DNA of 64,000 nt. Source: a virus. Positions 6,918 to 64,000 of this stretch are shown in pieces; the stretch's first letter is position 1, and every line of letters starts with the position of its first letter. Under the pieces are notes generated by a model that saw only the letters and a program-made list of their open reading frames with translations, made no database searches and had not been told where the DNA came from. Position numbers and translations under genes: made by a program. The stretch lies in UHGV virus genome UHGV-1962423; one strand, 5' to 3'.

Positions 6918-6958
6918 TTCAGATATATATTACTTAGGTGAGAGAATTACGTAATACT
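6918..6958 (+). promoter_or_regulatory. conserved promoter-like box TTCAGATATATATTACTTAGGTGAGA plus palindromic hairpin
   Basis: One of five near-identical AT-rich boxes in the window; hairpin core attacgtaat at 6946-6955; about 45 nt upstream of ATG 6991. Confidence 0.6.
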
Positions 6959-16332: not shown

Positions 16333-16371
16333 CCACGAAAGACGTATTAAGACCTATTAGGAGAATTAAGA

Positions 16372-33795: not shown

Positions 33796-33835
33796 TCAGA
33801 TATATATTACCTTAGTGAGATTACACAGTAATCTC
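33795..33835 (+). promoter_or_regulatory. conserved promoter-like box CTCAGATATATATTACCTTAGTGAGA plus hairpin
   Basis: Same box as at 6918, 53683 and 58071; hairpin gagattac-acag-gtaatctc; about 50 nt upstream of ATG 33870. Confidence 0.6.
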
Positions 33836-38470: not shown

Positions 38471-38788
38471 ATGTGGTTAAGTGCTATTCATCGCGATTTA
38501 CCGAAAACGGCAGTGAGTTTTGCTAAGAAAACTCCTGTTCCTAACGTTGGTGTTGCTAAATTTGAACGAGTGGAAGAGGGGCAATTCGTTGTAACGGATC
38601 ATAAAGAAAACGAATTTATGTTGTATCATCCAGAAGTGGATACCTCTGAAATTTGTGAGGGTGTTTTTTTATTGTCCTGGCAAGACCCTGAAACTAAAGA
38701 GTGGAAGTGGTGCACCGCTAAACCATTAAAAGAAATCGAAAACGGTTATGGGATTGGAGAAATTTATGTCGAACCAGAACCACACTAA
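38471..38788 (+). CDS. hypothetical protein (105 aa)
   Basis: Track start TTG 38456; ATG 38471 with GAGGA 8 nt upstream. Confidence 0.6.
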   Translation: MWLSAIHRDLPKTAVSFAKKTPVPNVGVAKFERVEEGQFVVTDHKENEFMLYHPEVDTSEICEGVFLLSWQDPETKEWKWCTAKPLKEIENGYGIGEIYVEPEPH

Positions 38789-38833
38789 TTTCGATATAAC
38801 ATCAGCATTGCGTTGTTAACGGTCTAAAAAATT

Positions 38834-38866
38834 TAAGATATATTTCATCTATGTGAGAATTCTCAC
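38834..38866 (+). promoter_or_regulatory. variant promoter-like box AAGATATATTTCATCTATGTGAGA plus palindrome gtgagaattctcac
   Basis: Degenerate copy of the conserved box; perfect 14-bp palindrome 38853-38866; upstream of ATG 38890. Confidence 0.45.
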
Positions 38867-38889
38867 TTAACTAAATGGAGTAATCTAAA

Positions 38890-39159
38890 ATGGCTAAGAT
38901 TTACATTGTTGAAAAACGTTCAGGTAATGTTCTTTCTTATCACGAAGAAGGCAAACCCGAAAGAGTTAAAACGCTCAAGCTTGAAGGTTTTGATGTGAAA
39001 AGCCTGCGTAAAGGCGTGAAGATTACTTTCAAAGGTTTGATTCGTGCAAGTAACTTACACATCATTAAAACGGACGGAACGATGGTTGCATTAGCACCGG
39101 CTACCGCTGCGAAAACGACAGCCGGTCGGGGTTGCTACGGCAGCAGTCGTAAGATTTAA
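38890..39159 (+). CDS. hypothetical small protein (89 aa)
   Basis: GGAG RBS; terminator downstream. Confidence 0.65.
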   Translation: MAKIYIVEKRSGNVLSYHEEGKPERVKTLKLEGFDVKSLRKGVKITFKGLIRASNLHIIKTDGTMVALAPATAAKTTAGRGCYGSSRKI

Positions 39160-39164
39160 GCAGT

Positions 39165-39205
39165 GCCCCTCTCTCCTAGCGGAGAGAGGGTACTTTTATT
39201 TTTCT
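39165..39205 (+). terminator. rho-independent terminator
   Basis: cccctctctcc-tagc-ggagagaggg followed by tacttttatttttc; stem sequence almost identical to the terminator at 38378. Confidence 0.8.
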
Positions 39206-44892: not shown

Positions 44893-47800
44893 ATGGCTAA
44901 AGCGGTAAAGAAAATTCGTTTACACGATTTACGTCCATACACCGGTGATATCGGTGAAGGCGTTTTACTTTTCTCCAAGGATGAGAAAGATTATAAGTTA
45001 CCAGTCCGTGAGGTTATTGCAGATATTGACACCGTACGTAATGCGGTGGCTGATGCACAAACAGCAGCAGCACAATCACAAGAAGCTGCAACTCAGGCTA
45101 CGCAAGCAAAAGTTTTAGCAGAAGCAGCAAAACAACAAACTGACACAGTTGCGGCAACGGTTGCACAACAAGCGCAAACCGTAACCGAAAAAGCAACAGA
45201 AGTCAGTACAAAACATACCGAAGTGTTAGCCGCGAAAACGGCGGTAGACGCTCAGGCTGTGTCCATTAATGAGAAAGCACAAGCGGTAGCGACAAGTGAG
45301 GCAAACGTCACACAAGCAGAAACTACCGTTACGAAGAAAGCAGAAACTGTTGCCACACAAGCCGGGCGGGTCGAACAGTCACTTACGGCAGTTAACGAAG
45401 CTGTTGCGTCGGTAGAGTCGTCGAAAGCTGCCGTAGAAGCTAAAGCAACACAAGTTACTTCAGACAAAGAAACCGCAGAGAATGCGGCAACTCGTTCTGA
45501 GGCAGCCGCTAAGCGTGCGGAAGAAATCGTTGCTCAAGGTACTGTTGATGCAACAACGACCAGTAAAGGTGTCGTTAAACTTAATAATACCTTAACCAGT
45601 GACTCTGTTACTGAAGCGGCTACACCGTCAACGGTTAAGCAGTTAAATGATGAATTGCAGTTAAAAGCAAACCGTCACAACCCAACTTTTACCGGTGTGG
45701 TAAAAGCACCGACTCCTGCTTCGGATTCTAACGACACGAGCGTCTCAACGACTGCATGGGTACGGCAAGCGATTGCTGAATTAGTGGACTCTTCACCCGA
45801 GACGTTAGATACGTTATCAGAAATTGCAGCCGCGTTAGGAAACGATCCTAACTTTGCGACAACGATAACGAACCAACTAGCGGGTAAACAGCCGTTAAGT
45901 CCGTTACTGACAGCGATTGCCGCAGTCACCACCGCTGCAAACAAACTCCCTTACTTTACCGGTAGTAATCAGGTAGGGTTAGCGGATTTCACCTCGACTG
46001 CTCGCGAATTATTAGCGAAAGGGTCGACGGCCGATATCATCAGCTTCCTGGGGTTGAAAACCACCGTTGATAAAGCTGCGGGCGCTATGCAACGTAGTTC
46101 TAACGGTGCCGATATTCCCGATAAAGCCACCTTCGCGAAGAACATCGGGTTGTCAGCAGAGACGTACCTGAAGTTTAATGGGGAGATGCCAGTAGATGCA
46201 GACATCAACACCTTCGGCCCGGTTGAAGCGTTTATGGGCGTTTGGTCTAAAGCCACGTCTACGAACGCAACAGTTGCAAAGAATTTTCCAGAAGAAAACG
46301 CAGTTGGTTGTTTAGAAGTTTTCAAAGCGGGTAACTACAGCGGAAGTCAACGTTTTACTGTACGTAACGGTAACATCTATACACGTCATCTTACTGCTGC
46401 ATGGAATGGGACAAACGGTCCTTGGTCAGAATGGCGTAATGTTGCTGGTTCCGCCAGAACGTTGAACGAACAAAATAATCTGAATGACTTGGGTGGTGAG
46501 GCCGCACTAGGTGTTTGGAGAAACAGTTCGAGTACATTAGCAACAACCGCGCTGAATTATCCTGAAGAAGGCTCTTTTGCCCAGGGCGTATTAGAAGTTC
46601 TCAAAGGTGGCAACTATAGTTACACACAACGCTACACTACCCGCAGAGGCAATGTATACGTTCGTTGTCTACAAGCCACGTGGGACGCTTCAAACCCGCA
46701 ATGGGAAGAATGGCGCTGTGTTGGTCATCAATCTGTCAGCACATATTTCGAAGGCGATCTCGACACGTTAACTTCGCCTAACCGTTATAGCATTACTGAT
46801 AAAGCGACAAACGTTCCTTTAATCGACGGTACTAAAATTATCGGTATCTTGGACGTCAGTCGTCGTTTTGATAACATTAGTGTCGAACAAAAATTCACCT
46901 CGTTTGGTTCTGGGAGCAAAACTACAGGGCGTATTTTCACACGTGTATTCTCCGGTCAATCAAACGGTAAATGGAGTGAGTGGCGAGAGGTTTTCACCTC
47001 GTATTCACTTCCGTTAGTTTTAGGTATCGGTGGGGTTGCAGCTAAGGTTGACCCGTTAGACTGGCAAACCTACGACTTCGTTCCTGGACAGATGTTAACG
47101 ACGCCGTTGAACACCATGAAAAACATTCCTGCAGGAATGGATTGGGGTACTATTGACGGTAACTTAGTTAACATCCTTGTAGGGCCGTCTGACGACACCG
47201 GTACTGGTCGGAGTATGCTGGTTTGGCGTAGCACAGTGTCTGTTGCTAACTATCGCTTCTTTGCGGTACGTATCGCTGGTGAGAAGGGTAGTCGTACGAT
47301 TACGCCGCGTCAGATGCCTGTGTTGAACGCAGCGCACACCTGGTCAGAGAAACAAACGTTCTCTAAAGGTTTAGCGGGTGAATTAACCGGTAATGCTTCT
47401 TCAGCAACGAAACTTCAAACAGCCCGTTTAATCGGCGGCGTAAGTTTCGACGGCACCAAGGACATTGCACTCCCTGGCGTTAACGCACAAGGTACGCAGA
47501 ACACCACTGGGAATGCGGCTACCGCAACCAAATTACAAACGGCTAGAAATATCAACGGTGTGAAATTCGATGGCTCTGGAGACATCAATATCAACACCTT
47601 AGTAGGTCGTGGACGTGTCACTGCTCTGGCTGGATCAAACAAAGGTACACCTGGTATCCAGATGTACGAGGTTTACAATAACGGTTATCCGACCGCGTAT
47701 GGTAATTTACTGCATTTAGGTGGTGCTACTGCCGTAGGTGAAGGTGAACTACTGATCGGTTGGTCTGGTACCAGTGGCGCACACGCACCTGTTTATATCC

Positions 47801-49209
47801 GTAGTCGTCGAGACACTACAGATGCGCCGTGGTCAGAATGGGCGCAAGTTTATACTGCACGAGACAGCATTCCGGGTGTCAACACCACAGGTAATCAGGA
47901 TACGACCGGAAACGCAGCTACCGCTACAAAACTTAAAACCACACGTAAAATAGGCGGGGTTAATTTTGACGGAACGGGTGATATTAACCTACCAGGTGTA
48001 AACCAGCAGGGCAACCAGAACACAACAGGTAACGCTGCGACAGCGACTAAACTCCAGACTGCCCGAAATATTGGTGGTGTGGCTTTCGATGGTACTAAAG
48101 ACATCAGTTTACCTGGGGTAAACCAAACAGGGAATCAGTCAACTACGGGGAACGCTGCTACTGCAACGAAGTTGCAGACAGCAAGAAGTATCAACAACGT
48201 ACCATTCGATGGTTCGAAAGATATTACTCTAACGCCAAGTAATATCGGTGCGGCTGCCTCCTCAATGACTTGGTTAAATACCGGGGATAATGGTGCAGCG
48301 CTTAGTACAGATTCTTTTATTACTTTGTTGCAAAATAACGGGGCTTTTAATTCCAGAACTTGGATAGCCCGATGCTCTTGGGCGTATGCTCAAAATGGCG
48401 TGATTCCAGATAGTGAAACAAAGTGCGGTACTATTCCACTTGCAGGCTCAGTTATTGAAGTTGTAAGTTTTGGGATGACCAACTACACCATTCGTATCAC
48501 AACCCCTACGACGACATCGGTTAGCGGAGCAAAAACCAACTCTGAGTTTATTTATTGCTATAATGGTAAAGATTATTCTCCAGGTTGGCGACGGCAGTAT
48601 AACACTGTTAATAAACCGTCTGCTAGTGACGTTGGCGCTCTACCAACTGGTGGCGGTACTGTCAGTGGCGATTTGACGGTTAATGGTAAACTGGTTACGA
48701 AAAATGCCGATTTTCGAATTGCTTACGGTAGTTACGGTTTCATTTTACGTAACGATGGCAATAGCACCTATTTCTTAGTAACAGCATCTGGTCAAGCTGC
48801 AACGGGTTCCTGGAATAACTTACGACCGATGTATTTTAGCAACTCTACCGGTCAAGTAACCTTCGGGCACAACGTTACTGGTAACGGGAACGGTTCGTTT
48901 AACGACGTACAGATTCGTTCTGACCGTCGTAACAAACGTAATCTGGTGAAACTGGATAATGCATTAGACCGTTTAGAACTCCTTACCGGGTATCTGTACG
49001 AAGTTCAACATCCTGACGATGGATGGAATACTTCGGTAGGCTTAATTGCCCAGGATGCATTAGTTGCGTTACCTGAATTGGTTACTGAAGACGATGACGC
49101 TATTTCTGGTGAAAAACGTTTACGTTTGAACTATAATGGTGTTATTGCGTTGTTGGTAGAGGGCATTAAAGACCTTCGTCGTGAGCTTAAGGAACTCAAG
49201 GGGAAATAA
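44893..49209 (+). CDS. long tail fibre protein with C-terminal intramolecular chaperone domain (1438 aa)
   Basis: N-terminal anchor shared with 50934 gene; Ala/Thr/Gln-rich coiled-coil; tandem TGNAATATKLQTAR.IGGV.FDGTKDI.LPGVN repeats like T4 gp12/gp34/gp37 fibre repeats; C-terminus SDRRNKRNLVKLDNALDRLELLTGYLYEV...GLIAQDALVALPELV matches the self-cleaving chaperone of endosialidase/L-shaped fibre proteins. Confidence 0.85.
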   Translation: MAKAVKKIRLHDLRPYTGDIGEGVLLFSKDEKDYKLPVREVIADIDTVRNAVADAQTAAAQSQEAATQATQAKVLAEAAKQQTDTVAATVAQQAQTVTEKATEVSTKHTEVLAAKTAVDAQAVSINEKAQAVATSEANVTQAETTVTKKAETVATQAGRVEQSLTAVNEAVASVESSKAAVEAKATQVTSDKETAENAATRSEAAAKRAEEIVAQGTVDATTTSKGVVKLNNTLTSDSVTEAATPSTVKQLNDELQLKANRHNPTFTGVVKAPTPASDSNDTSVSTTAWVRQAIAELVDSSPETLDTLSEIAAALGNDPNFATTITNQLAGKQPLSPLLTAIAAVTTAANKLPYFTGSNQVGLADFTSTARELLAKGSTADIISFLGLKTTVDKAAGAMQRSSNGADIPDKATFAKNIGLSAETYLKFNGEMPVDADINTFGPVEAFMGVWSKATSTNATVAKNFPEENAVGCLEVFKAGNYSGSQRFTVRNGNIYTRHLTAAWNGTNGPWSEWRNVAGSARTLNEQNNLNDLGGEAALGVWRNSSSTLATTALNYPEEGSFAQGVLEVLKGGNYSYTQRYTTRRGNVYVRCLQATWDASNPQWEEWRCVGHQSVSTYFEGDLDTLTSPNRYSITDKATNVPLIDGTKIIGILDVSRRFDNISVEQKFTSFGSGSKTTGRIFTRVFSGQSNGKWSEWREVFTSYSLPLVLGIGGVAAKVDPLDWQTYDFVPGQMLTTPLNTMKNIPAGMDWGTIDGNLVNILVGPSDDTGTGRSMLVWRSTVSVANYRFFAVRIAGEKGSRTITPRQMPVLNAAHTWSEKQTFSKGLAGELTGNASSATKLQTARLIGGVSFDGTKDIALPGVNAQGTQNTTGNAATATKLQTARNINGVKFDGSGDININTLVGRGRVTALAGSNKGTPGIQMYEVYNNGYPTAYGNLLHLGGATAVGEGELLIGWSGTSGAHAPVYIRSRRDTTDAPWSEWAQVYTARDSIPGVNTTGNQDTTGNAATATKLKTTRKIGGVNFDGTGDINLPGVNQQGNQNTTGNAATATKLQTARNIGGVAFDGTKDISLPGVNQTGNQSTTGNAATATKLQTARSINNVPFDGSKDITLTPSNIGAAASSMTWLNTGDNGAALSTDSFITLLQNNGAFNSRTWIARCSWAYAQNGVIPDSETKCGTIPLAGSVIEVVSFGMTNYTIRITTPTTTSVSGAKTNSEFIYCYNGKDYSPGWRRQYNTVNKPSASDVGALPTGGGTVSGDLTVNGKLVTKNADFRIAYGSYGFILRNDGNSTYFLVTASGQAATGSWNNLRPMYFSNSTGQVTFGHNVTGNGNGSFNDVQIRSDRRNKRNLVKLDNALDRLELLTGYLYEVQHPDDGWNTSVGLIAQDALVALPELVTEDDDAISGEKRLRLNYNGVIALLVEGIKDLRRELKELKGK
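47385..48240 (+). repeat. tandem in-frame coding repeats of the fibre motif
   Basis: At least five copies of the ~25-50 aa unit; nucleotide copies differ at synonymous positions. Confidence 0.7.
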
Positions 49210-50933: not shown

Positions 50934-53066
50934 ATGAGTCAGCCAATTGGAAAGAAGCGTATTCATGAGCTGGAAACATTTGAAGGTGAATTAGCAGGAG
51001 TCGTTCTGCTGATGTCCAAAGACGACAAAGAATATAAACTTGACGCATCTCGTTTACAAAACGATAAGCTGTATCTAGCTTGCGGTACACCTTTTCCTAA
51101 ACTAGTATTCCAAAACGATAAAACACTTTACAATATTAATCCGTACAGTGACTACGACACTTATGAAGTTTCTGCAAATAAAGGTCGGGTATCTAAAGTT
51201 ACTCGTGCCACATTTAGCGTGATGGCTGGGTCTTTATCGGTTGGCGAGAAAATACAACTTACAGTTACGCGCAATGGCGTACCATTTCAATTTGAAGTTA
51301 CCGTATCGGGACCGCGTATCACTACTCCCACTTGGACACTTCCAGTTAATGGCGGTAAATTGAGCGTAACGCCAACCTTTGAAGTAACTGACTATCAAGC
51401 CTATCCATATACCAACACCGGTAATCAACAGACCGCTGCCAGTTGGGAAATTTCCACTAGTGAAGATTTCTCAACTACAGTTTTCCAATCACTGAACGAC
51501 ACCGTCAACAAAACAACCATCAGTATCCCAGAAGGTAAGTTAGAACCAGGTCAAACTTACTACGCACGTGTTCGCTTCCATAACGCAGTAACCGAAAGTG
51601 ATTGGTCCGTTGTTCAATTCTCAGTCGGCGAAGCATTTATTCAGCGTCCTGCACTGATCGAACCCACCGTAGACATGGTGTTAAGCGCATCGAATATTAC
51701 ACTTAAAACTGATGTTTTTAAATGGGTCGGTGACGAACCTGCGGAGACCCACGTATCGACTGACTGGCAGGTTACTTACGGTAGCAACGATTTTGACGAA
51801 ATGAATAATCTCGTTAACCAATTAGAAGATGCGATTAACCTGACGTCGCTTAAATTACCGTCTGATCGGGTTTACGTTAATAACAGTTATCGTGCACGCG
51901 TGCGTTTTCGTGGTGAGAGAAGCGTCAGTGATTGGTCTGAACCTTTAACGTTCCGTGTAAGTCGCGGGAACGTACCAACAAGTGAATTCCAGTCAATTTC
52001 TGCTTCTGGATTTACAGGTAATTCAATCGGTGCTGAGTTGGCATGTACTGACGACGGTTTGCTGTTTGCTGCTACTGGCGTTGCACAGAAAGCGAAATTC
52101 TTACATATCTTTAAGAAAGACTTCCCGTCTTACAACAAAGTTGCCTCTTTAACAGCTGCTACTGAGGTTGACGCAGACAGAGATGGTCGCTGTCCGGTCA
52201 GTATGTCAGCCGACGGTAAGATTATTGTTGTCGGTGTTAGCGCATCTAAAGCTAACGAAGACCACGGCGAAGTTATCGTTTACCGTAACCCAGATAACGC
52301 TGAGTGGAGTACAATCAACGGAATAACTTTAGCGGGATTACCCACAGAAGGGTTCCATGGCCTTGCAGTAAAACTGTCAAAAGACGGCAATCGTTTGATT
52401 GTGGGTAACGGTACGAAAGTGCTGTCTATGTATTCCAATACCGATCAATTTGCTACACGTACGGCTGTGTCGCCGACACTAAGTGCCGAAGACGCCACTT
52501 GTGGTGGTATTGGTAGCATTGCAATGTCTGAAGACGGTAACGGTTTAGTGCTTGGCGAAACTAACGGAACGAAATTCCACGTACTGGCTTGGGAATCGGA
52601 TAGTTGGGTGACTAAGGCATCTATTACACCAAAAGACTTGACTGAGAAAGCAACGATTAAAGTCGCTGCTTCTTCTGACTTGTCTACGATTCTTGTTTCT
52701 GTAGTTGAGACACACAAATACTACGTTTACAAGAAAACCGGTGATAGTTGGTCTCTGTTCCAAACCTTGGATTATACCGAACTGGATTACTCCATTACTT
52801 CTACCCGTTACCCGACGGGAGACATTAATGTTGCGCCTTCCGGAAGCTGGTTAATTTTCGGTATGGTGGGTTCGTTGGGTTCTATTTTCGAATTTCGTAA
52901 TAGTACCTACCAACGACAAAATAGCATTTACGGCAGTAGTCTTAGCGATCCTGAGAATTACCACTTCTATACGTCACAAGCCATCAGTGCACAAAACGAT
53001 TTGTTCGTCGGTGCTGATGTTAAAGAAAGTGCTTCGTACTTCCCACAAATCAAAGTTTACATGTAA
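50934..53066 (+). CDS. second receptor-binding protein (tail fibre/spike) with shared N-terminal anchor (710 aa)
   Basis: N-terminus KKRIHELETFEGELAGVVLLMSKDDKEYKL parallels KKIRLHDLRPYTGDIGEGVLLFSKDEKDYKL of the 1438-aa fibre; central Ig/FN3-like stretches; C-terminal repeated ..DG..IVVG.. units suggestive of a beta-propeller (inference). Confidence 0.6.
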   Translation: MSQPIGKKRIHELETFEGELAGVVLLMSKDDKEYKLDASRLQNDKLYLACGTPFPKLVFQNDKTLYNINPYSDYDTYEVSANKGRVSKVTRATFSVMAGSLSVGEKIQLTVTRNGVPFQFEVTVSGPRITTPTWTLPVNGGKLSVTPTFEVTDYQAYPYTNTGNQQTAASWEISTSEDFSTTVFQSLNDTVNKTTISIPEGKLEPGQTYYARVRFHNAVTESDWSVVQFSVGEAFIQRPALIEPTVDMVLSASNITLKTDVFKWVGDEPAETHVSTDWQVTYGSNDFDEMNNLVNQLEDAINLTSLKLPSDRVYVNNSYRARVRFRGERSVSDWSEPLTFRVSRGNVPTSEFQSISASGFTGNSIGAELACTDDGLLFAATGVAQKAKFLHIFKKDFPSYNKVASLTAATEVDADRDGRCPVSMSADGKIIVVGVSASKANEDHGEVIVYRNPDNAEWSTINGITLAGLPTEGFHGLAVKLSKDGNRLIVGNGTKVLSMYSNTDQFATRTAVSPTLSAEDATCGGIGSIAMSEDGNGLVLGETNGTKFHVLAWESDSWVTKASITPKDLTEKATIKVAASSDLSTILVSVVETHKYYVYKKTGDSWSLFQTLDYTELDYSITSTRYPTGDINVAPSGSWLIFGMVGSLGSIFEFRNSTYQRQNSIYGSSLSDPENYHFYTSQAISAQNDLFVGADVKESASYFPQIKVYM

Positions 53067-53075
53067 GGAAACGCG

Positions 53076-53636
53076 ATGAAATATGCTTATTTAAAAGACG
53101 GTAATGTGATCGACTGGAATGTTACCGAAGACATGATTGCTTTGCGTGGCCACACTGTAGATATTTATACGCCTGTAGTAGAATCTGCTAAACCGGTTGT
53201 TAACCCTGATTGTTATATCGTGTTCGAAACAACACCAAAACTGGTAAAAGGCAAGCTGGTTCAACAGTGGGTGACTGAAGTGCTGCCTAAAGAAACGGTA
53301 GTACGTAACCAGAAGGCACGTTTAGCGGAAATTCGTTATGCGAAAGAAACTGCCGGGATTACGTTTAAAGACCAAACTATTCCTACGACACGTGATGTAC
53401 GTTATCAGTTAATTCAGTCTAAACACGTTGATTCTACGCAACCTATTAACTGGAAGCTAGGCGATACGTGGCTAAGTCTTACTCAGGAAGACATTGATGC
53501 GCTGCTGGTTGCAATCGCAACTTATGTTGAGAAATGCTACGCGGCAGAACGCACAGTCTCCGAGAAAATCACTAAGGTGAAAGCACCTGAAAAACTGGAT
53601 GTAGAAACCTTATTTAACGACGCTTTCGCAGCGTAA
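53076..53636 (+). CDS. hypothetical protein, possible fibre assembly or accessory factor (186 aa)
   Basis: Immediately downstream of the second receptor-binding gene; role inferred from position only. Confidence 0.6.
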   Translation: MKYAYLKDGNVIDWNVTEDMIALRGHTVDIYTPVVESAKPVVNPDCYIVFETTPKLVKGKLVQQWVTEVLPKETVVRNQKARLAEIRYAKETAGITFKDQTIPTTRDVRYQLIQSKHVDSTQPINWKLGDTWLSLTQEDIDALLVAIATYVEKCYAAERTVSEKITKVKAPEKLDVETLFNDAFAA

Positions 53637-53683: not shown

Positions 53684-53728
53684 TCAGATATATATTACCT
53701 AGAGGAGAGTGAAATTTACATTCACTCC
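53683..53728 (+). promoter_or_regulatory. conserved promoter-like box CTCAGATATATATTACCTAGAGGAGAG plus hairpin
   Basis: Box plus hairpin gagtgaa-atttaca-ttcactc; about 30 nt upstream of ATG 53757. Confidence 0.6.
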
Positions 53729-55059: not shown

Positions 55060-55887
55060 ATGTTACAGTTCGAACTCACCGAAGAAAGAAAAGTCGTTAA
55101 CGAGTTTAAAATTTCCCCTATCCCTACCGAAAAACAAATTAAAGAAATCGCTGAGTTACAAAATAAGTACAGCTTTTACTATAAAGTTAAATCGGAAACA
55201 TTTAATATTTTCTGGACCGAAGACGAGGTCAATTTCCCTAACAAACTCATTAATGCGGCTCTAGATATTTTAGTACGGCCTGTTGAGACGTCTAAAGATC
55301 CAGAACAAACCACTTGTAGGTTGAAAGTCGAGCGCCCAGCGAAGGATGTTGCTTACTTCACAGACGAGATTCTACTTACCTCCAAACAGGCAGGTAAAAT
55401 TGGATCAATATTATACCTTTTTTACAGCGACAAATTCACTTATCTGGTTGAAAACAACGTACTTAAAGTGAACTATGAATATGCTAGTTATCGTGTTCTT
55501 TTAAATCAACTATTGGAAGACATAGAGGGAGAAAATGTTCTGGTATTTACAGTTGAATATATTAGCAAAGCCGATGCTGGCGAGTTTATCCGCCGCGTGA
55601 AAGATGAACTCGAAGACCGTGAATTTATGATTTATCAAAGCAAATATCTTGAAGGTAACTTGAATCTCTTGATCAGAAACGAATCATGGATTCTTAAAGT
55701 TTTGGAATCCCATGCGCAGAAAATTAAGAGAGGCAGTGATTGTTTTAAACAAATTTTCGAGAAATACGAAACGGAAATTAGACAACGGCTTGCATCCCAC
55801 TGGGCCGTAGATCAGGATGTGGAATACGCCCAGCTATTTGATAAGTTTTATAACGAGATGAGGAGGGTTTGGGATCTTAAACAATAG
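55060..55887 (+). CDS. hypothetical protein (275 aa)
   Basis: AGGAG RBS. Confidence 0.75.
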   Translation: MLQFELTEERKVVNEFKISPIPTEKQIKEIAELQNKYSFYYKVKSETFNIFWTEDEVNFPNKLINAALDILVRPVETSKDPEQTTCRLKVERPAKDVAYFTDEILLTSKQAGKIGSILYLFYSDKFTYLVENNVLKVNYEYASYRVLLNQLLEDIEGENVLVFTVEYISKADAGEFIRRVKDELEDREFMIYQSKYLEGNLNLLIRNESWILKVLESHAQKIKRGSDCFKQIFEKYETEIRQRLASHWAVDQDVEYAQLFDKFYNEMRRVWDLKQ

Positions 55888-55967: not shown

Positions 55968-56483
55968 ATGTCAGTAAATATTAACATGAATCTTTATACT
56001 AAACGTGAACGTCAGATTCTGGCGAATCAACCCGGTGTTACGACTATTGACGGTAAACCCATTGACCGTTTAAAAGTTATCGTTGCGCGAAATTGCCATG
56101 AACGCGATTGGGACATTACCTACTTCCGTTGTTGTTCGGTCGCAAACGCGCTTACCCAACTCTCCAACTACCACCCAGGGCCGTTATTAAAAGACTGGGT
56201 TTGGTTAGTACCCAAAACACCTTCGGCGATTGAATACCCCTCAGGGTTGGTTTATATCCGTCCTGTTGCTTATCCAGAACGTCTGAAAGAGTATCTTGAA
56301 GTTATCTGGAACCGTCCTCGTAAAGAGCTGGTGACGATCATTAATTTACTGCAACAGATCGATATCCCCGGAGTTTTGAATTTGAAACTCACGTCTCGCG
56401 ATATTAACCAGGCTTACTGGGAACTAGAGTGGACAGAACCGAAATTCGAAAACACTAACCGTATTTTCTTGCACCGGGGGTAA
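55968..56483 (+). CDS. hypothetical protein (171 aa)
   Basis: AAAGGAG RBS. Confidence 0.75.
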   Translation: MSVNINMNLYTKRERQILANQPGVTTIDGKPIDRLKVIVARNCHERDWDITYFRCCSVANALTQLSNYHPGPLLKDWVWLVPKTPSAIEYPSGLVYIRPVAYPERLKEYLEVIWNRPRKELVTIINLLQQIDIPGVLNLKLTSRDINQAYWELEWTEPKFENTNRIFLHRG

Positions 56484-57789: not shown

Positions 57790-58060
57790 AACAGTTGTAT
57801 TTCGTAGTAATGGTGATGTGGTTTTGTATCGTGGTAAGAAACGTATTCGTACGTTAGAATACCGTGAAGCAAAACGTTTTGTTGAAGAGTGTGCATGGTT
57901 AATGCATTACGAAGGGAACTATCGTGCTATCTTAGAAGCTCCGCGTTTAGAACGTGCGGTTGCACAGATGGCAATAGGTAATCCTAAGAACTGTTACCTG
58001 GCCCGTAAGCCAAAATACTTACAGCGTCTTTCGTTAGGCAGCTTTATTGCTGGATTTTAA
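57779..58060 (+). CDS. hypothetical protein (93 aa)
   Basis: ATG 57779 with GGGAG 8 nt upstream; track start GTG 57758. Confidence 0.6.
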   Translation: MKRETVVFRSNGDVVLYRGKKRIRTLEYREAKRFVEECAWLMHYEGNYRAILEAPRLERAVAQMAIGNPKNCYLARKPKYLQRLSLGSFIAGF

Positions 58061-58070
58061 TAAAAATAAT

Positions 58071-58112
58071 TTCAGATATATATTACCTAGGTGAGAGTTC
58101 AGTTACTCTCAC
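58071..58112 (+). promoter_or_regulatory. conserved promoter-like box TTCAGATATATATTACCTAGGTGAGAG plus hairpin
   Basis: Hairpin gtgagagt-tcagtt-actctcac; about 30 nt upstream of ATG 58143. Confidence 0.6.
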
Positions 58113-58142
58113 TTAACCAAAACCATTTTAGGAGCATATACC

Positions 58143-58637
58143 ATGAACTTCACTAGACTTGACTACACTAACGAATTAGTCGACAAAGAAAAATACAAAT
58201 TCACCGTTGGCTTGGGTTACGGATTACTGGACGTAGAAAAAGACGTCCTGCACAAAGAATTCCGTGAACAGTTCGGTGCTCTGTTCTGCGCAGGTTTCCG
58301 CAGAAACACTATCGATATCGGTTATAGCGCAACAGCGTATACCGACGAAGAAATGTTTAAGCTGGTAACACAGATTATCGGTACGCGTGGAGCCAAACGA
58401 CTCAACTATTCCAACGAACTTGTTTCGAAAGAACATTACAAGTTCACCGTTAGACTACCTGTTCCCCTCACAGAAGAGGATAAGAACATCCTCTATAAAG
58501 CCCTTCAAACCGAATTCGGTAAAACGCTCAAAGTAGGGTTCCGTAATCGTAGTATCGATATCGGAATTAGTGTAGACGTATGCAGTGACGATGACCTTTA
58601 CGAACTAGTTTCGGAAGTTATCGGAAAACATCTTTAA
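58143..58637 (+). CDS. hypothetical protein made of two tandem ~80-aa homologous domains (164 aa)
   Basis: TAGGAG RBS; halves align (LDYTNELVDKEKYKFTVGL...GFRRNTIDIGYS vs LNYSNELVSKEHYKFTVRL...GFRNRSIDIGIS). Confidence 0.8.
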   Translation: MNFTRLDYTNELVDKEKYKFTVGLGYGLLDVEKDVLHKEFREQFGALFCAGFRRNTIDIGYSATAYTDEEMFKLVTQIIGTRGAKRLNYSNELVSKEHYKFTVRLPVPLTEEDKNILYKALQTEFGKTLKVGFRNRSIDIGISVDVCSDDDLYELVSEVIGKHL

Positions 58638-58680
58638 CGTAAATTAACACTTCGACTTGTAAATCTAAAAGGAAAATAAA

Positions 58681-59472
58681 ATGGCTACTTTAACTATTGC
58701 TAATACTCTTACTCCTCGTAAAATGAAACGTCTTACGACTTTTATCTCTCGCTGCACACCTAGCGTCAAATTGGAAACGACCTCTGACAAAATCACGTTT
58801 TGGACTTATAGTGACGTAGAACTTGAAACTGTGAAAGGGTTTGTTAATGGGCTAGTTGAAAATACCGCATCATCACTCGTTATTAGCTTCACTAGCGAAA
58901 ATAGCGAGATGAACGAAGCAACAATTTCGGATGCAATCTATTACGCGACTGGCAATAATTTTGATACCGCCGACAGACTTAATCTTTCTAATAACCTTTG
59001 TAAAATCGACGACAAGACTTACATCCTGTATTTTAATAGTCCGTTCCCACAAATCGGAGGTTTTAAACATTATCTTTCAATGAAACCTATCTTGGGTATA
59101 GAAGTTTTCTCTACGGATCTTGAAGACAATGTACAGCTAAACCGTATTCGTTATCGTGGTAAACGTCCAACCGAAACAGATTCTGAATACGGTGCTTGTG
59201 CTGAATGTATTCTGGTTCATAAAGATCGCTTCGCTTACTACAACCAAGACGATATTGAACGTCTTGTAGAAGCCGTCAATTTATACACTCGCGATTTTGC
59301 ATTCCGATTGGTTTATAACACTTATCCGAATGGTGTAACGGCTTTCTATATCCCTCCCTACCTTTTCGACAAGGTTTATTGTATTCTGTCTAAAGAACTG
59401 GAAAAAATTAAACCGGTTTTCGTGGGCGAAGACGCTATGGCTTATATCAGGAGTGGTGCTAATGTCCTCTAA
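58681..59472 (+). CDS. hypothetical protein (263 aa)
   Basis: AAAGGAAAA RBS. Confidence 0.75.
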   Translation: MATLTIANTLTPRKMKRLTTFISRCTPSVKLETTSDKITFWTYSDVELETVKGFVNGLVENTASSLVISFTSENSEMNEATISDAIYYATGNNFDTADRLNLSNNLCKIDDKTYILYFNSPFPQIGGFKHYLSMKPILGIEVFSTDLEDNVQLNRIRYRGKRPTETDSEYGACAECILVHKDRFAYYNQDDIERLVEAVNLYTRDFAFRLVYNTYPNGVTAFYIPPYLFDKVYCILSKELEKIKPVFVGEDAMAYIRSGANVL

Positions 59473-59893
59473 ACTTAAAGATGAATTGCGTGATTACATT
59501 CGTAAATACCCAGCCAGTATTCCGGTACTGGCTTCACTCTCTCTGTCGGGTATGGACCTTAATACCTTAACGGTAGAAAAATTCCACGAAGTGGTAAAAT
59601 CATCGTACCAAATTGTTACCGATATGTCAGTGCGGAAACGTGCTGACTACCCAGACGGTGATTTCGGTACGGAGATGTTCACAGACTACGCAGTTGCGTA
59701 TCTGATGGGACGTCACTTTATCGATAAACTCAATACGGCTGTAGAAGGAGAAACAGTTTCGGAAATTGTCAATGCTTGGCAACAACGTACTGTGAGTGAT
59801 GCTTACTGTCGTCAAGCCTTAAAGAAAATGTCGGCAGTAGCGCTAACCAATGACCAACGTGCTTTAGAGTTCCTTAAGCACAATTACGAATAA
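59462..59893 (+). CDS. hypothetical protein, paralog of 61177..61608 (143 aa)
   Basis: ATG 59462 with AGGAG 9 nt upstream (track start GTG 59453); LKDELRDYIRKYP vs LKDDIRNYIRNNP in the paralog. Confidence 0.7.
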   Translation: MSSKLKDELRDYIRKYPASIPVLASLSLSGMDLNTLTVEKFHEVVKSSYQIVTDMSVRKRADYPDGDFGTEMFTDYAVAYLMGRHFIDKLNTAVEGETVSEIVNAWQQRTVSDAYCRQALKKMSAVALTNDQRALEFLKHNYE

Positions 59894-59914
59894 TTTACCA
59901 AAAGGAAAAGTACC

Positions 59915-61099
59915 ATGTTTAATATTGAAATTACCCCGCTCGTTAAAACTAAAATCCGTCCGGTTCCCGAAGCACAATTACTCGTACAGCTTTATCATGT
60001 ATTCCTAGATAAAGGTGTGGATTTCCGTGTAGAACAGGTCAACGATGAAAGCATCGTATTCTACTGGACTCACAGCAATGATTACCTTTACACTATCGTG
60101 AAAGAAATCGGTGAGTTACTCAACCCAGTAGCCACGAACGCCTGGGTAGAATCGACCGAGACTGAACAACCGAAAGTCGAAGAACAGCAACAGTCTATAA
60201 ACAAGAGTCACGACCCGTACGTTTGCCGATATGATGTCGAAACGATCGAGAAAATTAAAGAAGTGTTAGAGATCTTCTATCCTGATGACTTATACATCAG
60301 TCGGCAATACGACATGTTAGCTGTCAGTATGAAGGAATTCGATCCTAAGATCATGAAAGATATTCGTAGCATCATTGCTTCGATTGTTTACGACACCGTT
60401 CGACTTATTTCGTTTCAAGGTATCGGAAAAGGTGAAGCGGACGAATTCATGCGTATGGCTGTTCACGAACACAAGGAGAAAATTCGCCAGTCTAATTACG
60501 CTAACGATACTTTAACTGTGCTTGTTGATAATGACCCTGTTGTTATTAACCAGCTGAACATCCGTATGCGTCAGTTAACAAAGAAAATTTTTCTTAAAGA
60601 GGAGCAATCGCTTGAAGAGTCCAAAGTGTCGAAAGTCTTTACTTACACTGGCCCAGATGCCAAAGCGATTGACGATACTTTGACAGCTTTCTATTCTAGC
60701 AAAGTGGAGACTAAACTCGAGGGCGAAGAACTCACTATTAAATGGAAATGGTGGGACATTGCTCTTGAAGAAGAAATTCATAGTCTCATTAAAGAGATTG
60801 TTGACGACCGTCTACGTCTTCTAACAATCACTACTATTGGGAAAGAAGATGCCGATACGTTTATGCGTGGTATCACTCGTTGGTTCCCTGAGAAAGTCCG
60901 TCAGTGGACTTACACAAACGATACACTTACCATTCTGCTCAATTATGAACCCGGTATTATTGGAAAGTTAAAAACTCATCTGCGTGACTTGTGGTCAGTT
61001 CGTTTTCTTAATAATAACGAGCACTTACTCGACGCGTACTTTAGAGAAATATCTTCTGGCGTAGGTTGCAACTGCCCTAACTGTCAAAAACGTCGTTAA
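59915..61099 (+). CDS. hypothetical protein with internal duplication and C-terminal Cys cluster (394 aa)
   Basis: Repeated ADEFMRMAVHEHKEKIRQSNYANDTLTVLV / ADTFMRGITRWFPEKVRQWTYTNDTLTILL units; C-terminal GVGCNCPNCQKRR. Confidence 0.8.
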   Translation: MFNIEITPLVKTKIRPVPEAQLLVQLYHVFLDKGVDFRVEQVNDESIVFYWTHSNDYLYTIVKEIGELLNPVATNAWVESTETEQPKVEEQQQSINKSHDPYVCRYDVETIEKIKEVLEIFYPDDLYISRQYDMLAVSMKEFDPKIMKDIRSIIASIVYDTVRLISFQGIGKGEADEFMRMAVHEHKEKIRQSNYANDTLTVLVDNDPVVINQLNIRMRQLTKKIFLKEEQSLEESKVSKVFTYTGPDAKAIDDTLTAFYSSKVETKLEGEELTIKWKWWDIALEEEIHSLIKEIVDDRLRLLTITTIGKEDADTFMRGITRWFPEKVRQWTYTNDTLTILLNYEPGIIGKLKTHLRDLWSVRFLNNNEHLLDAYFREISSGVGCNCPNCQKRR

Positions 61100-61176
61100 T
61101 TAACGACTTTCTAAATTCATCTAGAGGGGTGGTTTACCACCCCTCTATTATTGTATTTACCTAAAGGAGTATTAAA

Positions 61177-61608
61177 ATGTTTTTCGTATTAAAAGATGAT
61201 ATCCGTAACTACATTCGTAACAACCCTATTGCTCTGGGCGTTTTAGCAGGTTTCTGTCGTCCAAATACTGATTTCGATTTAGTTAAGTTAGAAGAATATC
61301 AGGAAATTGTGAATACTAACTACATGCACATCTGTAGCTGGGGTAAACGTCCTCGCGAAGAGTACCCTGTAGGTGAGTTAGGTGACACTATGCATCGTGA
61401 CCAGAATCTGATGCACGAATTCGTTGAATACACACTGGAAAATCTTAACTATCCGCTTCTGGTCGACACTGTACCAGAAATGGTTGACGAATGGTTAAGT
61501 CGTGTTTACAATGACCCTACTGCCAGCACTCTACTGAGTCAGATGTCGCAAACTTCTCGTGATATCGACACCCGGACCCTGATGTACCTAGCACACAACG
61601 TTCGCTAA
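61177..61608 (+). CDS. hypothetical protein, paralog of 59462..59893 (143 aa)
   Basis: AAAGGAG RBS; same length and N-terminal motif as the paralog. Confidence 0.75.
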   Translation: MFFVLKDDIRNYIRNNPIALGVLAGFCRPNTDFDLVKLEEYQEIVNTNYMHICSWGKRPREEYPVGELGDTMHRDQNLMHEFVEYTLENLNYPLLVDTVPEMVDEWLSRVYNDPTASTLLSQMSQTSRDIDTRTLMYLAHNVR

Positions 61609-61614
61609 CCTTAC

Positions 61615-61680
61615 TCCGCTATAGGCTTCGGTCTATAGCGGAATTAATTTTCTTTCCCTTTTCTTTTTTGTTATTTTGAC
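61615..61680 (+). terminator. rho-independent terminator
   Basis: ccgctatag-gcttcggt-ctatagcgg followed by T-rich tract. Confidence 0.7.
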
Positions 61681-61774
61681 ACCACTTTACTTACACCCTA
61701 CCCGACTATTCCTATGCTGGCTGAGGGATGTAAAACGACCTCTTAAACCTTTTTACTTACTGTGAGTTAACGCG

Positions 61775-62623
61775 ATGTCTCTTACGTCAAAACAGAAACT
61801 GCTAAAACTCATCAACACTGAAAACAATATTAGTCCACCGTTGACTTTCAGTGATGTTGATATCGGAGAACCTACTGGTACTGGGGTTGATACCCAGGTG
61901 GTTCTGACCTCTAAACTCAAAGGCGATGAGTCTACTACTTTAACAGTGACTTACCACCGTCGTAATTTACCTGACTACTTAACCGGTGAGTTGGTTTTCG
62001 GTAACGACAGTGTGGTAACCGCATCAGATTTGCTTAATGCGATCAACGCAAAATACAACCTAAATATTTTACCCTCGGATATCGTTGACGCAAAAGTTGA
62101 AGGTGAAACCCATCAGCTTACCGCTAACGAGAAATCTTACGAGTGGTGCGGTGTAGTAACACTTACGCTGCGTGATCCTATTGACCTGACTGAACTGTTA
62201 CCAGTTACTCAATTAGAGAATCTGGTAGAGTATCCGTCCACTAAGAAAGGTAACGCTGCGGTTTATTCTCACCCGATCGATTTCACCGCAGAAAAAGATT
62301 ACCTTGACCCGATTACTATCAACGACACCGTAGACTTGGTCGAGTTAGCCGCTAAACTGGATGGCGTCGTTGACGAGAAATGGGTAAGTGTGCCTAAGAA
62401 CGCGACTAACAACCTGTACGGTGCGAAGGTTATTTACGATGGCCCAACCGCAGGTTACGAAGGCGCAAATACGAAGTTCACTCGTGTGTTGGTGCTGACG
62501 CTCAGCCCGCTGTGTTCTAACCTGACAGGTAATCTGTTAATCCACTTTAACGGTACCGATCGTCCGAAGTCGAAGATTGAATTAGCACAGACTAATCCGG
62601 TCTTACCGGGATTCTTAGATTAA
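61775..62623 (+). CDS. hypothetical protein (282 aa)
   Basis: Long ORF; paralogous to the following truncated gene. Confidence 0.75.
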   Translation: MSLTSKQKLLKLINTENNISPPLTFSDVDIGEPTGTGVDTQVVLTSKLKGDESTTLTVTYHRRNLPDYLTGELVFGNDSVVTASDLLNAINAKYNLNILPSDIVDAKVEGETHQLTANEKSYEWCGVVTLTLRDPIDLTELLPVTQLENLVEYPSTKKGNAAVYSHPIDFTAEKDYLDPITINDTVDLVELAAKLDGVVDEKWVSVPKNATNNLYGAKVIYDGPTAGYEGANTKFTRVLVLTLSPLCSNLTGNLLIHFNGTDRPKSKIELAQTNPVLPGFLD

Positions 62624-62636
62624 GAGGATTACAGTA

Positions 62637-63161
62637 ATGACCAATCAAGAAACTATCTTCGACCTTATTAAAAAGGCTAACCCAGACGCTGAGTTCGACA
62701 CCACCAAAGTCACACTGGGTGACCCGGTCGTAACCACCGGTACGTACAATACCGAAATCACAGTTGCGTCAATTAAGAATCTCGGTTATACTAACGAACA
62801 AACGTTCCAGTATAACCGGATCGACGCAGGTTTGTATTTCCTGAACGTATTACCGAAACTGTTGGTGGAATCGGCAACAACGACCGCTGACTTACTGCCT
62901 GTCATTAACGAGCAGTACAGCCTAACCCTTACAGAAGACGATGTATGGGTAGAGCAGGTTGGTGAGTTACCGTTAGACGGAAGCGCAATCGAACACGGTA
63001 TTTTCTTCCGTCCTGAGTGTCTGACCTGGGTTGGCGGTTTTACAGTGCGAGTTGCGCGTAAACCGGCTGGCGCTACGCCACCCGAGACATGGAGGAGCCC
63101 CAGACCGCCGAATCCTGGCGCACCATGCCCCAGAAGGCGGCCGAGTGGTGGAAAAAGGTAA
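62637..63161 (+). CDS. paralog of 61775 gene, disrupted at the composition junction near 63070
   Basis: First ~145 codons are phage-like and align to the upstream paralog; the remaining frame runs into high-GC DNA with implausible Pro/Arg-rich translation. Confidence 0.5.
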   Translation: MTNQETIFDLIKKANPDAEFDTTKVTLGDPVVTTGTYNTEITVASIKNLGYTNEQTFQYNRIDAGLYFLNVLPKLLVESATTTADLLPVINEQYSLTLTEDDVWVEQVGELPLDGSAIEHGIFFRPECLTWVGGFTVRVARKPAGATPPETWRSPRPPNPGAPCPRRRPSGGKR

Positions 63162-63229
63162 ACGCAGGTGAAATTGAGAACCCGTTTATTTTCGAGCACA
63201 GCAACGAGCCGGAGGACTACGAGTTTTAA
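63089..63229 (+). CDS. small hypothetical ORF in high-GC segment (46 aa)
   Basis: Not in track. ATG 63089 to TAA 63227-63229; followed by a 10-bp-stem hairpin (63241-63273). Weak evidence. Confidence 0.25.
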   Translation: MEEPQTAESWRTMPQKAAEWWKKVNAGEIENPFIFEHSNEPEDYEF

Positions 63230-63304
63230 TTCCAAAGCGCGGAAGAAGGGGCGGCCGGTACGTCCCTTCTTCCTGTGCATTGCTTATAAAGGAGTGTCAC
63301 AGCT

Positions 63305-64000
63305 ATGGCAAAGACCATCATCACCGCCGCGCTGACCGGCGCGGTCACCCCCGCGGGCTACAAGATCCCCGAGACGCCCCAGCAGATCGCCAACGAGGCT
63401 TACGACGCCTGGAAGCTGGGCGCCGCCGTGGTACACCTGCACATGCGGGCCGACGACGGCCTGGGTGCCATGGACAAGGAGAAATTCCGGGAGACCATCC
63501 GGCTTATCCGCAGCCACCAGGACTGTGATGTCATTATCAACTGCACCTCCTCCGGCGCTTCTGCCGAGCATCCCGCCACGGATGAGGAGCGGATGGCCCA
63601 TCACCGGGAGCTGGAGGGCATCGAGATGGGTTCCTATGATGCCGGTACCTTCAACTGGATGCCCGGCGGCGTGTTCGTCAACTCCCCCCAGTTCCTCGAG
63701 AAGCTGGGCGATCTTTACATGGAGAAGGGCATCAAGCCGGAGCTGGAGATCTTTGACGCTGGCATGCTGGGCGTGGCCAGCTACTTCGTGAAGAAGGGCC
63801 ACCTGTCCACCCCCTGCCACTACCAGTTCTGCCTGGGCGTGCTGGGCGGCATGCCCGCCACGGTGGAGAACCTGCTCTACCTGGTGCAGCACATCCCCGC
63901 CGGTTCCACCTGGTCGGCCTTCGGCGTGGGCAAGGGCCCCCTGCCCATCCTGTTCGCCTCCCTGGCCCTGGGCGGCCACATCCGCGTGGGCATGGAGGAC
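63305..64000 (+). CDS. kce: 3-keto-5-aminohexanoate cleavage enzyme-like protein (BKACE/DUF849), 3'-truncated at window edge
   Basis: Not in track because no stop in window. AAAGGAG RBS then MAKTIITAALTGAVTP..., HLHMRADDG, GGHIRVGMED; GC-rich third codon positions; frame open to the end of the window. Confidence 0.7.
   Translation, partial: MAKTIITAALTGAVTPAGYKIPETPQQIANEAYDAWKLGAAVVHLHMRADDGLGAMDKEKFRETIRLIRSHQDCDVIINCTSSGASAEHPATDEERMAHHRELEGIEMGSYDAGTFNWMPGGVFVNSPQFLEKLGDLYMEKGIKPELEIFDAGMLGVASYFVKKGHLSTPCHYQFCLGVLGGMPATVENLLYLVQHIPAGSTWSAFGVGKGPLPILFASLALGGHIRVGMED

Follow-up and report, generated by a model that had tools for sequence, protein, structure and literature searches.

When a large gene followed by a small one occurs twice in succession, and the two small genes resemble each other, do the pairs represent functional modules, or does the pattern have another origin? 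This question is raised by positions 58681–61608 of the UHGV virus genome UHGV-1962423, of which we analysed a stretch of 64,000 nucleotides (nt; hereafter referred to as the window). The region encodes proteins of 263, 143, 394 and 143 amino acids (aa), hereafter referred to as X, p143a, Y and p143b, respectively (Table 1). An earlier reading of the nucleotide sequence, the original prediction, regarded the region as a duplicated effector-plus-partner cassette. Our analysis upheld the part stating that p143 is duplicated and that each copy lies behind a larger gene, but supported neither the duplication of a cassette nor an effector-partner relation. With a probability of roughly 0.6, the locus represents a conserved early gene that was duplicated in this phage lineage and is interleaved with hypervariable accessory slots, rather than a set of cognate modules.

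Table 1. Positions of the genes and the predicted transcription signals in the window
Feature	Position	Strand	Description
p275 (275 aa)	55060-55887	+	sole Y paralog in the window; lies in the preceding early-type unit
Early-promoter-like motif TCAGATATATATTACCTAG	58072-58090	+	repeated 19-mer; contains the phiKZ TATATTAC core; probable operon start
Hairpin, probably 5′ leader stem-loop	58088-58115	+	RNAfold free energy (dG) -15.5 kcal/mol, z -4.3
p164 (164 aa)	58143-58637	+	first gene of the operon; internal tandem duplication of a ~80-aa unit
X (263 aa)	58681-59472	+	occupant of a hypervariable slot; alleles divergent or replaced by an unrelated family
p143a (143 aa)	59462-59893	+	extra copy, like phrog_8484 / SPN3US gp135
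Y (394 aa)	59915-61099	+	hypervariable; five beta-alpha-beta-beta-alpha modules, acidic disordered linker, CxCPxCQKRR tail
Hairpin between Y and p143b, terminator-like or attenuating	61122-61147	+	11-bp GC-rich stem, then TTATTGTATTT; dG -22 kcal/mol, z -4.6
p143b (143 aa)	61177-61608	+	positional ortholog of SPN3US gp135 and phiEaH2 AFQ96601
Intrinsic terminator, operon end	61615-61642	+	12-bp stem, TTCG loop, long T-rich tract; dG -20.2 kcal/mol, z -6.0

The p143 paralogs and the large genes in front of them

Alignment of p143a with p143b revealed 42 identical residues among 137 (31%), without a gap and with an expectation value (E) of 2e-26. The two proteins of the same length are thus paralogs, as had been predicted, and each of their genes follows a larger and different gene, both in the window and in every relative examined. 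We placed the start of p143a at the ATG at 59462, 7 nt after an AGGAG Shine-Dalgarno sequence; the mechanically generated list of open reading frames (ORFs) has a GTG at 59453. This start overlaps the stop codon of X by 11 nt. Across the X alleles, the distance from the X stop to the p143a start is −29, −20, −11 or +5 nt, such that the two genes overlap in most cases and otherwise nearly abut, an arrangement that would allow translational coupling.

Both proteins matched the profile of phrog_8484, p143a with E 1.1e-14 (residues 3–129 on positions 4–126 of the 140 of the profile) and p143b with E 1.5e-17 (residues 2–129 on positions 3–126). Profile match and fold agree with membership in this family, as does synteny in the case of p143b. 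The family is narrow, with 9 members found by a profile search of 1.84 billion representative proteins. The AlphaFold2 model of p143b features seven helices, with a predicted local distance difference test score (pLDDT) of 90.6, and a Foldseek comparison with BFVD matched the p143 fold to Erwinia jumbo-phage orthologs, including the Stratton ortholog, at template-modelling (TM) scores of 0.84–0.86 and a probability of 1.00. The fold was common only to these orthologs, and no solved structure proved to be related to it. The conserved features of p143 include a loop motif, R58-x-R60-x-x-Y63-P64-x-G66-x-x-G69-x-x-M72-x-x-D75, which is partly kept in distant members, as well as W106, R109, D113, H140 and N141.

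Single-copy orthologs of p143 are encoded by SPN3US (114059–114505; YP_009153429.1), phiEaH2 (38773–39201; AFQ96601.1) and a phiEaH2-like 246-kb contig. In each of them the gene lies downstream of homologs of p171, p93 and p102 and just upstream of an array of DUF7941 virion-protein genes. We compared the corresponding surroundings of p143b, from the p171/p102 backbone to the DUF7941 array, with those in SPN3US, phiEaH2 and the phiEaH2-like locus L028. Because the orthologs occupy the slot of p143b in front of the DUF7941 array, the positional ortholog is p143b; p143a, which has no counterpart in the SPN3US and phiEaH2-like regions examined, is the extra copy. The SPN3US ortholog corresponds to gp135 in the original numbering, a mapping fixed by the major capsid protein (gp75 = ACQ60_gp191). 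A literature search for SPN3US gp135 found no report on it, the sole match to 'gp135' being a Stratton protease homolog.

X and Y, the two large proteins, showed no similarity to each other (best E 0.5; HHalign probability 0.2%), and neither BLASTP nor HHalign gave a match that would identify X as a diverged copy of Y, as a true cassette duplication would have it. From its sequence, the N-terminus of X might still resemble the Y modules in structure. No relative of X was found among the neighbouring genes by HHalign, and neither X nor Y matched a family in Pfam, PHROG, NCBIfam or PADLOC. Searches of the proteins against these four databases returned no toxin, immunity, chaperone or defence family, and there was no PDB sequence match.

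The original prediction had also described Y as internally duplicated and as ending in a cysteine cluster, and both features were borne out. Residues 93–227 and 231–365 are 34% identical over 135 aa (E 3e-23; HHalign self-hit 99.1%), and the terminal C385-N-C387-P-N-C390-QKRR shows a conservation of at least 90% across 78 homologs. The structural model of Y (mean pLDDT 74) places the five modules at residues 9–69, 102–158, 162–232, 239–296 and 300–363, the internal repeat unit being a pair of such modules. The linker corresponds to residues 72–97, and the cysteines are carried by a tail of low confidence.

Residues 1–274 of p275 aligned with residues 1–366 of Y (HHalign probability 100%, E 1.6e-45; BLASTP E 5e-9). 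The gene after p275 is p171 (55968–56483; phrog_8180), which is 57% identical to its counterpart in phiEaH2 and 46% to that in SPN3US, and not a p143 homolog. Thus, X and Y are unrelated and the only Y paralog precedes a different small gene, which argues against the duplication of a two-gene cassette. We also considered p171 as a third p143-like partner, but the slight BLAST signal for this (E 0.2) did not recur with HHalign. p275 itself is variable, with 59–86% identity among relatives, and is seemingly absent in loci L024 and L026.

The first gene of the operon, p164, is likewise repetitive: its halves are 45% identical over 76 aa (E 7e-25; HHalign self-hit 98.7%). It had no family match. 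In L024, L026 and L027, a one-unit p164 of 88 aa is followed by an extra hairpin, such that its repeat number varies as that of Y does.

Exchange and constraint among related loci

To compare the locus across its lineage, we used a sample of 18 loci, to which a scan of viral sequences contributed 4 and a scan of metagenomes 9; a scan of genome contigs gave no relative. The gene order p164-X-p143a-Y-p143b-DUF7941 was invariant in all of them. The flanking genes were 89–99% identical to those of the window, except in the more divergent L023 (81%) and for the three one-unit p164 forms.

The ratio of nonsynonymous to synonymous substitution rates (dN/dS) was 0.15 for p143a, 0.09–0.13 for p143b, 0.13 for p164 and 0.09 for the DUF7941 gene, and 0.34–0.36 for Y. 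The conserved order and the dN/dS values, which range from 0.09 to 0.36, show that X, p143a, Y and p143b are all real genes. The values for the two p143 copies (0.09–0.15) indicate that both are under purifying selection, and for this reason they have probably diverged in function. As judged from these sequence comparisons, the p143 duplication is old, lineage-specific and kept by selection.

The X slot is occupied either by alleles of 263, 258 and 254 aa, with a mutual identity of 23–47%, or by an unrelated family of 157/178 aa; the X allele of the window forms a single cluster at 90% identity. Y occurs in one-repeat (251–260 aa) and two-repeat (366–394 aa) forms, with identities of 34–77%. 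In a large protein database it falls into at least 253 clusters at 90% identity, as compared with 12 for p143b. Its variation peaks at residues 95–160 and 361–380, while the N-terminal domain is nearly invariant (dN/dS 0.16). We found no indication of positive selection on Y, dN/dS exceeding 0.44 in no region. A diversity-generating retroelement or a DNA-repeat source for the variation was also considered and rejected, as a blastn comparison of 58000–61700 with the whole window returned promoter repeats only; the variation spans whole modules, including the gain or loss of repeats.

If each large protein had a cognate small one, the types of the two would be expected to go together. With types of Y and p143b defined at 90% identity or higher, Y fell into 13 types, and a single p143b type stood beside 11 of the 13, one- and two-repeat forms included. 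The distances of Y and p143b were uncorrelated (Mantel r = −0.02, p = 0.5). Similarly, a single p143a type was found beside four X groups (X263, X157, X254 and X258), the unrelated family among them. X and p143a distances gave a Mantel r of 0.56. This correlation is no higher than expected from the genomic background, since either gene correlated with the flanking DUF7941 gene at 0.42–0.49 (p143a versus p282, r = 0.49). The free combination of types argues against an effector-partner pairing, as does the presence of p143 as a single copy in the syntenic SPN3US and phiEaH2-like regions, where we found no homologs of X, Y, p164 or p275. Of the features that a cognate pair would display, namely co-variation, a recognisable domain and constant company, none was observed.

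A conserved adaptor, in contrast to a cognate partner, need not co-vary with its cargo. The p143 proteins might thus work as general-purpose adaptors or chaperones. By binding a part that the variable upstream proteins keep constant, for instance the N-terminal domain of Y, they might stabilise or assemble these proteins, or bring them to a site such as the phage nucleus, to the virion or to a host target, much as in secretion systems that combine an adaptor with polymorphic effectors. The adjacency in all 18 loci, the overlap or near-abutment of X stop and p143a start in every X allele, and the strong conservation of the Y N-terminal domain ahead of the variable modules are in favour of such a role. 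We nevertheless consider it unlikely. The upstream neighbours of the p143 orthologs in SPN3US and phiEaH2-like phages are unrelated proteins of 118 and 146 aa; p275 contains the N-terminal domain of Y and yet precedes p171; the short X (157/178 aa) and the long X have no detectable feature in common although the same p143a type follows both; and a conserved hairpin separates Y from p143b.

Transcription signals and the surrounding phage genome

The ORF list shows p164, X, p143a, Y and p143b as five closely spaced genes on the + strand. The 19-mer that precedes them occurs in 4 copies in the window (6919–6937, 33796–33814, 53684–53702 and the copy listed in Table 1) against 0.01 expected, and a degenerate fifth copy is found near 38826–38870. 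All the copies are on the + strand ahead of a gene block, several of them directly after a terminator, and a hairpin analogous to that at 58088–58115 is present at the remaining ones. Together with its hairpin, the element TTTCAGATATATATTACCTAGGTGAGAG labels at least four or five transcription units on the + strand and could serve to map the early regulon of the lineage. In the 15 related loci in which they are kept, motif and hairpin lie upstream of p164; the GTGAGAG/CTCTCAC stem is conserved among the loci, and the loop varies. A segment at 58059–58120 containing the motif and the hairpin is the sole DNA in 58000–62000 that matches known phages, over 40–60 nt; the matching sites in SPN3US-like and Erwinia jumbo phages are mostly unannotated (intergenic).

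TATATTAC is the phiKZ promoter string, and TCAGATATATATTACCTAG fits the extended consensus predicted for 201phi2-1/OBP (PMC7058600, Table 2). According to a review (PMC7598289), the AT-rich motifs conserved ahead of early operons have turned out, in all jumbo phages profiled, to be the early promoters of the virion RNA polymerase. The window thus has two marks of a phiKZ-type early unit, a repeated AT-rich motif of the TATATTAC class upstream of operons and a multisubunit RNA polymerase. The latter is represented by a 591-aa protein (14557–16332) that shares 76% identity with a protein of Erwinia phage Asesino annotated as 'putative RNA polymerase beta subunit' and 71% with the SPN3US-like counterpart, and that matches phrog_2943; a Pfam search found no RNA polymerase domain in it.

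The two downstream hairpins are conserved as well. In 16 loci, all positions of the hairpin between Y and p143b are paired, two pairs with compensatory changes, and the terminator is kept in 16 loci as well, L005 and L023 showing a compensatory C/G swap. The former hairpin leaves no room for a promoter before the ribosome-binding site of p143b. From the repeated and conserved promoter motif, the tight packing of the genes and the stable conserved hairpins, p164-X-p143a-Y-(hairpin)-p143b is predicted to be one transcription unit extending from 58072 to the terminator at 61615–61642, and probably an early one. Expression of p143b would then depend on read-through of the hairpin that precedes it, and the position of this stable element between Y and p143b is another point against a pairing of the two proteins.

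The same signals bear on the possibility that p143, and perhaps X and Y, serve the neighbouring structural genes, the tail fibres upstream and the DUF7941 array downstream, either as assembly chaperones or as proteins that are packaged and ejected. The DUF7941 array follows closely behind the p143 ortholog in SPN3US, the phiEaH2-like phages and the present lineage alike, and in phiEaH2-type phages the ortholog also adjoins a depolymerase or tailspike gene. The DUF7941 proteins themselves have expanded as paralogs, and the hairpin before p143b could uncouple this gene from the early unit. A role in assembly or in the virion is quite unlikely, however, in view of the early-promoter motif at the head of the unit, the strong terminator between p143b and the first DUF7941 gene, and the lack of similarity to tail-fibre assembly or chaperone families.

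As to the phage itself, the PHROG matches in the window include an SPN3US-type major head protein, a DnaB-like helicase, virion proteins and a 1438-aa tail fibre, and nearly all genes are on the + strand. By its sequence relationships, we assign the window to a new lineage, of ~225 kb, among the jumbo phages that encode an RNA polymerase, with Seoulvirus and Erskinevirus (SPN3US/phiEaH2) as its relatives. No GenBank phage matched the p164-p143b region at the protein level or, outside the short promoter segment described above, at the DNA level, and the GenBank phage collection searched contained no isolate of the lineage. Identical or related contigs of ~222–230 kb were found in metagenomes and assemblies labelled Salmonella, E. 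coli, Shigella and Enterobacter. Assemblies of cultured isolates with these labels hold near-full-length genomes of the lineage, examples being AAMABQ010000008.1 (GCA_009086185.1; 224,470 bp) and CP134655.1 (114,509 bp), which suggests a carrier state, pseudolysogeny or recurrent contamination.

Directly upstream of the early-type units is a host-recognition block. It comprises the tail fibre (44893–49209), a mosaic protein with matches to many PHROG fibre families, and then a protein of 710 aa that contains an Ig_Rha78A_N domain (50934–53066) and a 186-aa DUF4376 protein (53076–53636). Downstream, the DUF7941 / phrog_1037 virion structural proteins form an array of paralogs (61775–62623 and 62637–63088 in the window; 12574–13747 in L001), in which full-length 282-aa forms and shorter ones of ~160–190 aa occur, as they do in SPN3US and phiEaH2. 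Up to 63088 the identity of the window to L008 and L019 is 100%, after which it continues into unrelated DNA of 55–73% GC (63089–64000). The switch has the look of a junction in the window or of a chimeric assembly, and the DUF7941 ORF at 62637–63161 is accordingly chimeric; the intact gene in relatives encodes 159 aa and is followed by one for a GH108 endolysin. Two adjoining radical-SAM genes (440 and 307 aa) are located ~7 kb downstream of p143b in relatives (15000–16432 on the − strand of L001; also L002–L004), a distance that lies past the usable part of the window.

What the recurring pattern may reflect, and known systems

Early genes of nucleus-forming, RNA-polymerase-encoding jumbo phages are mostly uncharacterised and are expected to include functions in host takeover and counter-defence. 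On the reading that we favour, a duplicated conserved gene between variable slots, the region would be the second half of the early-gene block in a new SPN3US/phiEaH2-like jumbo phage with its own multisubunit RNA polymerase. A gp135-like backbone gene would have been duplicated in the lineage, with p143b keeping the ancestral position and p143a coming within a lineage-specific block (p164, X and Y) between backbone genes. The X slot would undergo swaps between unrelated families, and the Y slot would change by the gain or loss of repeats and by fast substitution of modules behind the conserved N-terminal domain. That a big variable gene stands next to a small conserved one would then be a consequence of variable slots between conserved backbone genes, and the layout of p275 and p171, a variable gene followed by a conserved one, fits this idea. 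The products would be made immediately after injection of the DNA and might act in host takeover or counter-defence, a role suggested by the presumed early timing and the variability between strains. X and Y would determine specificity, and the two p143 proteins would have a conserved role that is independent of any particular X or Y.

Several points weigh against this reading. The early timing was deduced from a sequence motif with a role demonstrated for phiKZ-type phages, not for this lineage. The hairpin in front of p143b could also act as a true terminator; p143b would then need another promoter, one not seen here, and could be expressed with different timing. None of the five proteins has a recognisable functional domain, such that a role in host takeover or counter-defence is suggested purely by timing and variability. 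Because dN/dS of Y is below 1 in every region, its variability could come from relaxed constraint rather than from an arms race, and its conserved N-terminal domain would suit a generic docking partner.

A further possibility, which is decidedly improbable, is that the Y/p275 family, with its conserved N-terminal domain, one or two copies of a double ferredoxin-like module and a CxCPxC tail, and the swappable X slot constitute a polymorphic early-effector system, in which the two specialised p143 paralogs are conserved docking or activating subunits. The targets of the variable modules would then be host factors that differ between strains, defence proteins or competing phages, and the system, if real, would be a phage-internal counterpart of the bacterial systems that combine an adaptor with polymorphic effectors. 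The strict form of the original prediction, the duplication of a two-gene cassette made up of a cognate effector-immunity or toxin-antitoxin pair, is scarcely credible despite the twofold large-then-small pattern and the X/p143a overlap, given that X and Y are unrelated with no cassette duplication visible, that types combine freely, that p143 stands alone in related phages, that no toxin, immunity or defence family was matched, and that p143 is under strong purifying selection whereas Y evolves faster and the X slot is swapped between families. Tail-fibre-chaperone pairs were rejected likewise, for want of a family match and of co-variation.

The duplicated gene between variable slots, our favoured reading, also carries a caution for other loci: a repeated pattern of a big gene and a small paralog can come from variable slots between backbone genes without functional pairing. 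The X and Y slots differ between phage genomes that are otherwise about 90–99% identical, which makes them good candidates for determinants of host range or anti-defence. Should X and Y prove to determine host specificity or anti-defence, the locus would gain in interest. As for p143, one small helical protein has been kept across three jumbo-phage lineages and is here duplicated and maintained, and SPN3US gp135 provides a tractable model for this conserved partner.

Among known systems, cassettes of type VI secretion system (T6SS) or contact-dependent inhibition (CDI) type effectors, and pairs of tail fibre and chaperone, are superficially similar to the locus in that a variable large gene precedes a small one, the N-terminus of Y is conserved and X is swapped. 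The locus differs from them in lacking secretion, toxin, immunity or fibre domains and co-variation, in the occurrence of the small gene alone in related phages, and in its context, an intracellular early operon of a phage. The structural matches to small alpha-beta domains of the ACT or ferredoxin-like kind (for instance ACT, Pcc1, CutA and pterin-4a-carbinolamine dehydratase) are generic, de novo designed proteins included. Sequence similarity to these domains is lacking (7–15% identity), as is a ligand-binding motif, and the module topology is without the final strand of the classic beta-alpha-beta-beta-alpha-beta fold.

The phiKZ-type early operons share with this locus the core motif, the extended 201phi2-1/OBP consensus, its repetition ahead of gene blocks and an encoded multisubunit RNA polymerase, and they differ in that the conserved downstream hairpin seen here is not part of the published consensus strings (PMC7058600). 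Finally, SPN3US gp135, phiEaH2 AFQ96601.1 and phrog_8484 at large are like p143 in the match to the hidden Markov model, the length of ~140–148 aa and the predicted seven-helix fold, and p143b occupies the same slot just upstream of the DUF7941 array. p143 is only 22–26% identical to these relatives, and here it is present in two copies embedded among lineage-specific genes. phrog_8484 is an uncharacterised family, such that placing p143 in it explains no mechanism. What is new here, relative to these systems, is a lineage-specific paralog pair of a known, uncharacterised jumbo-phage family beside two new hypervariable ORFan families.

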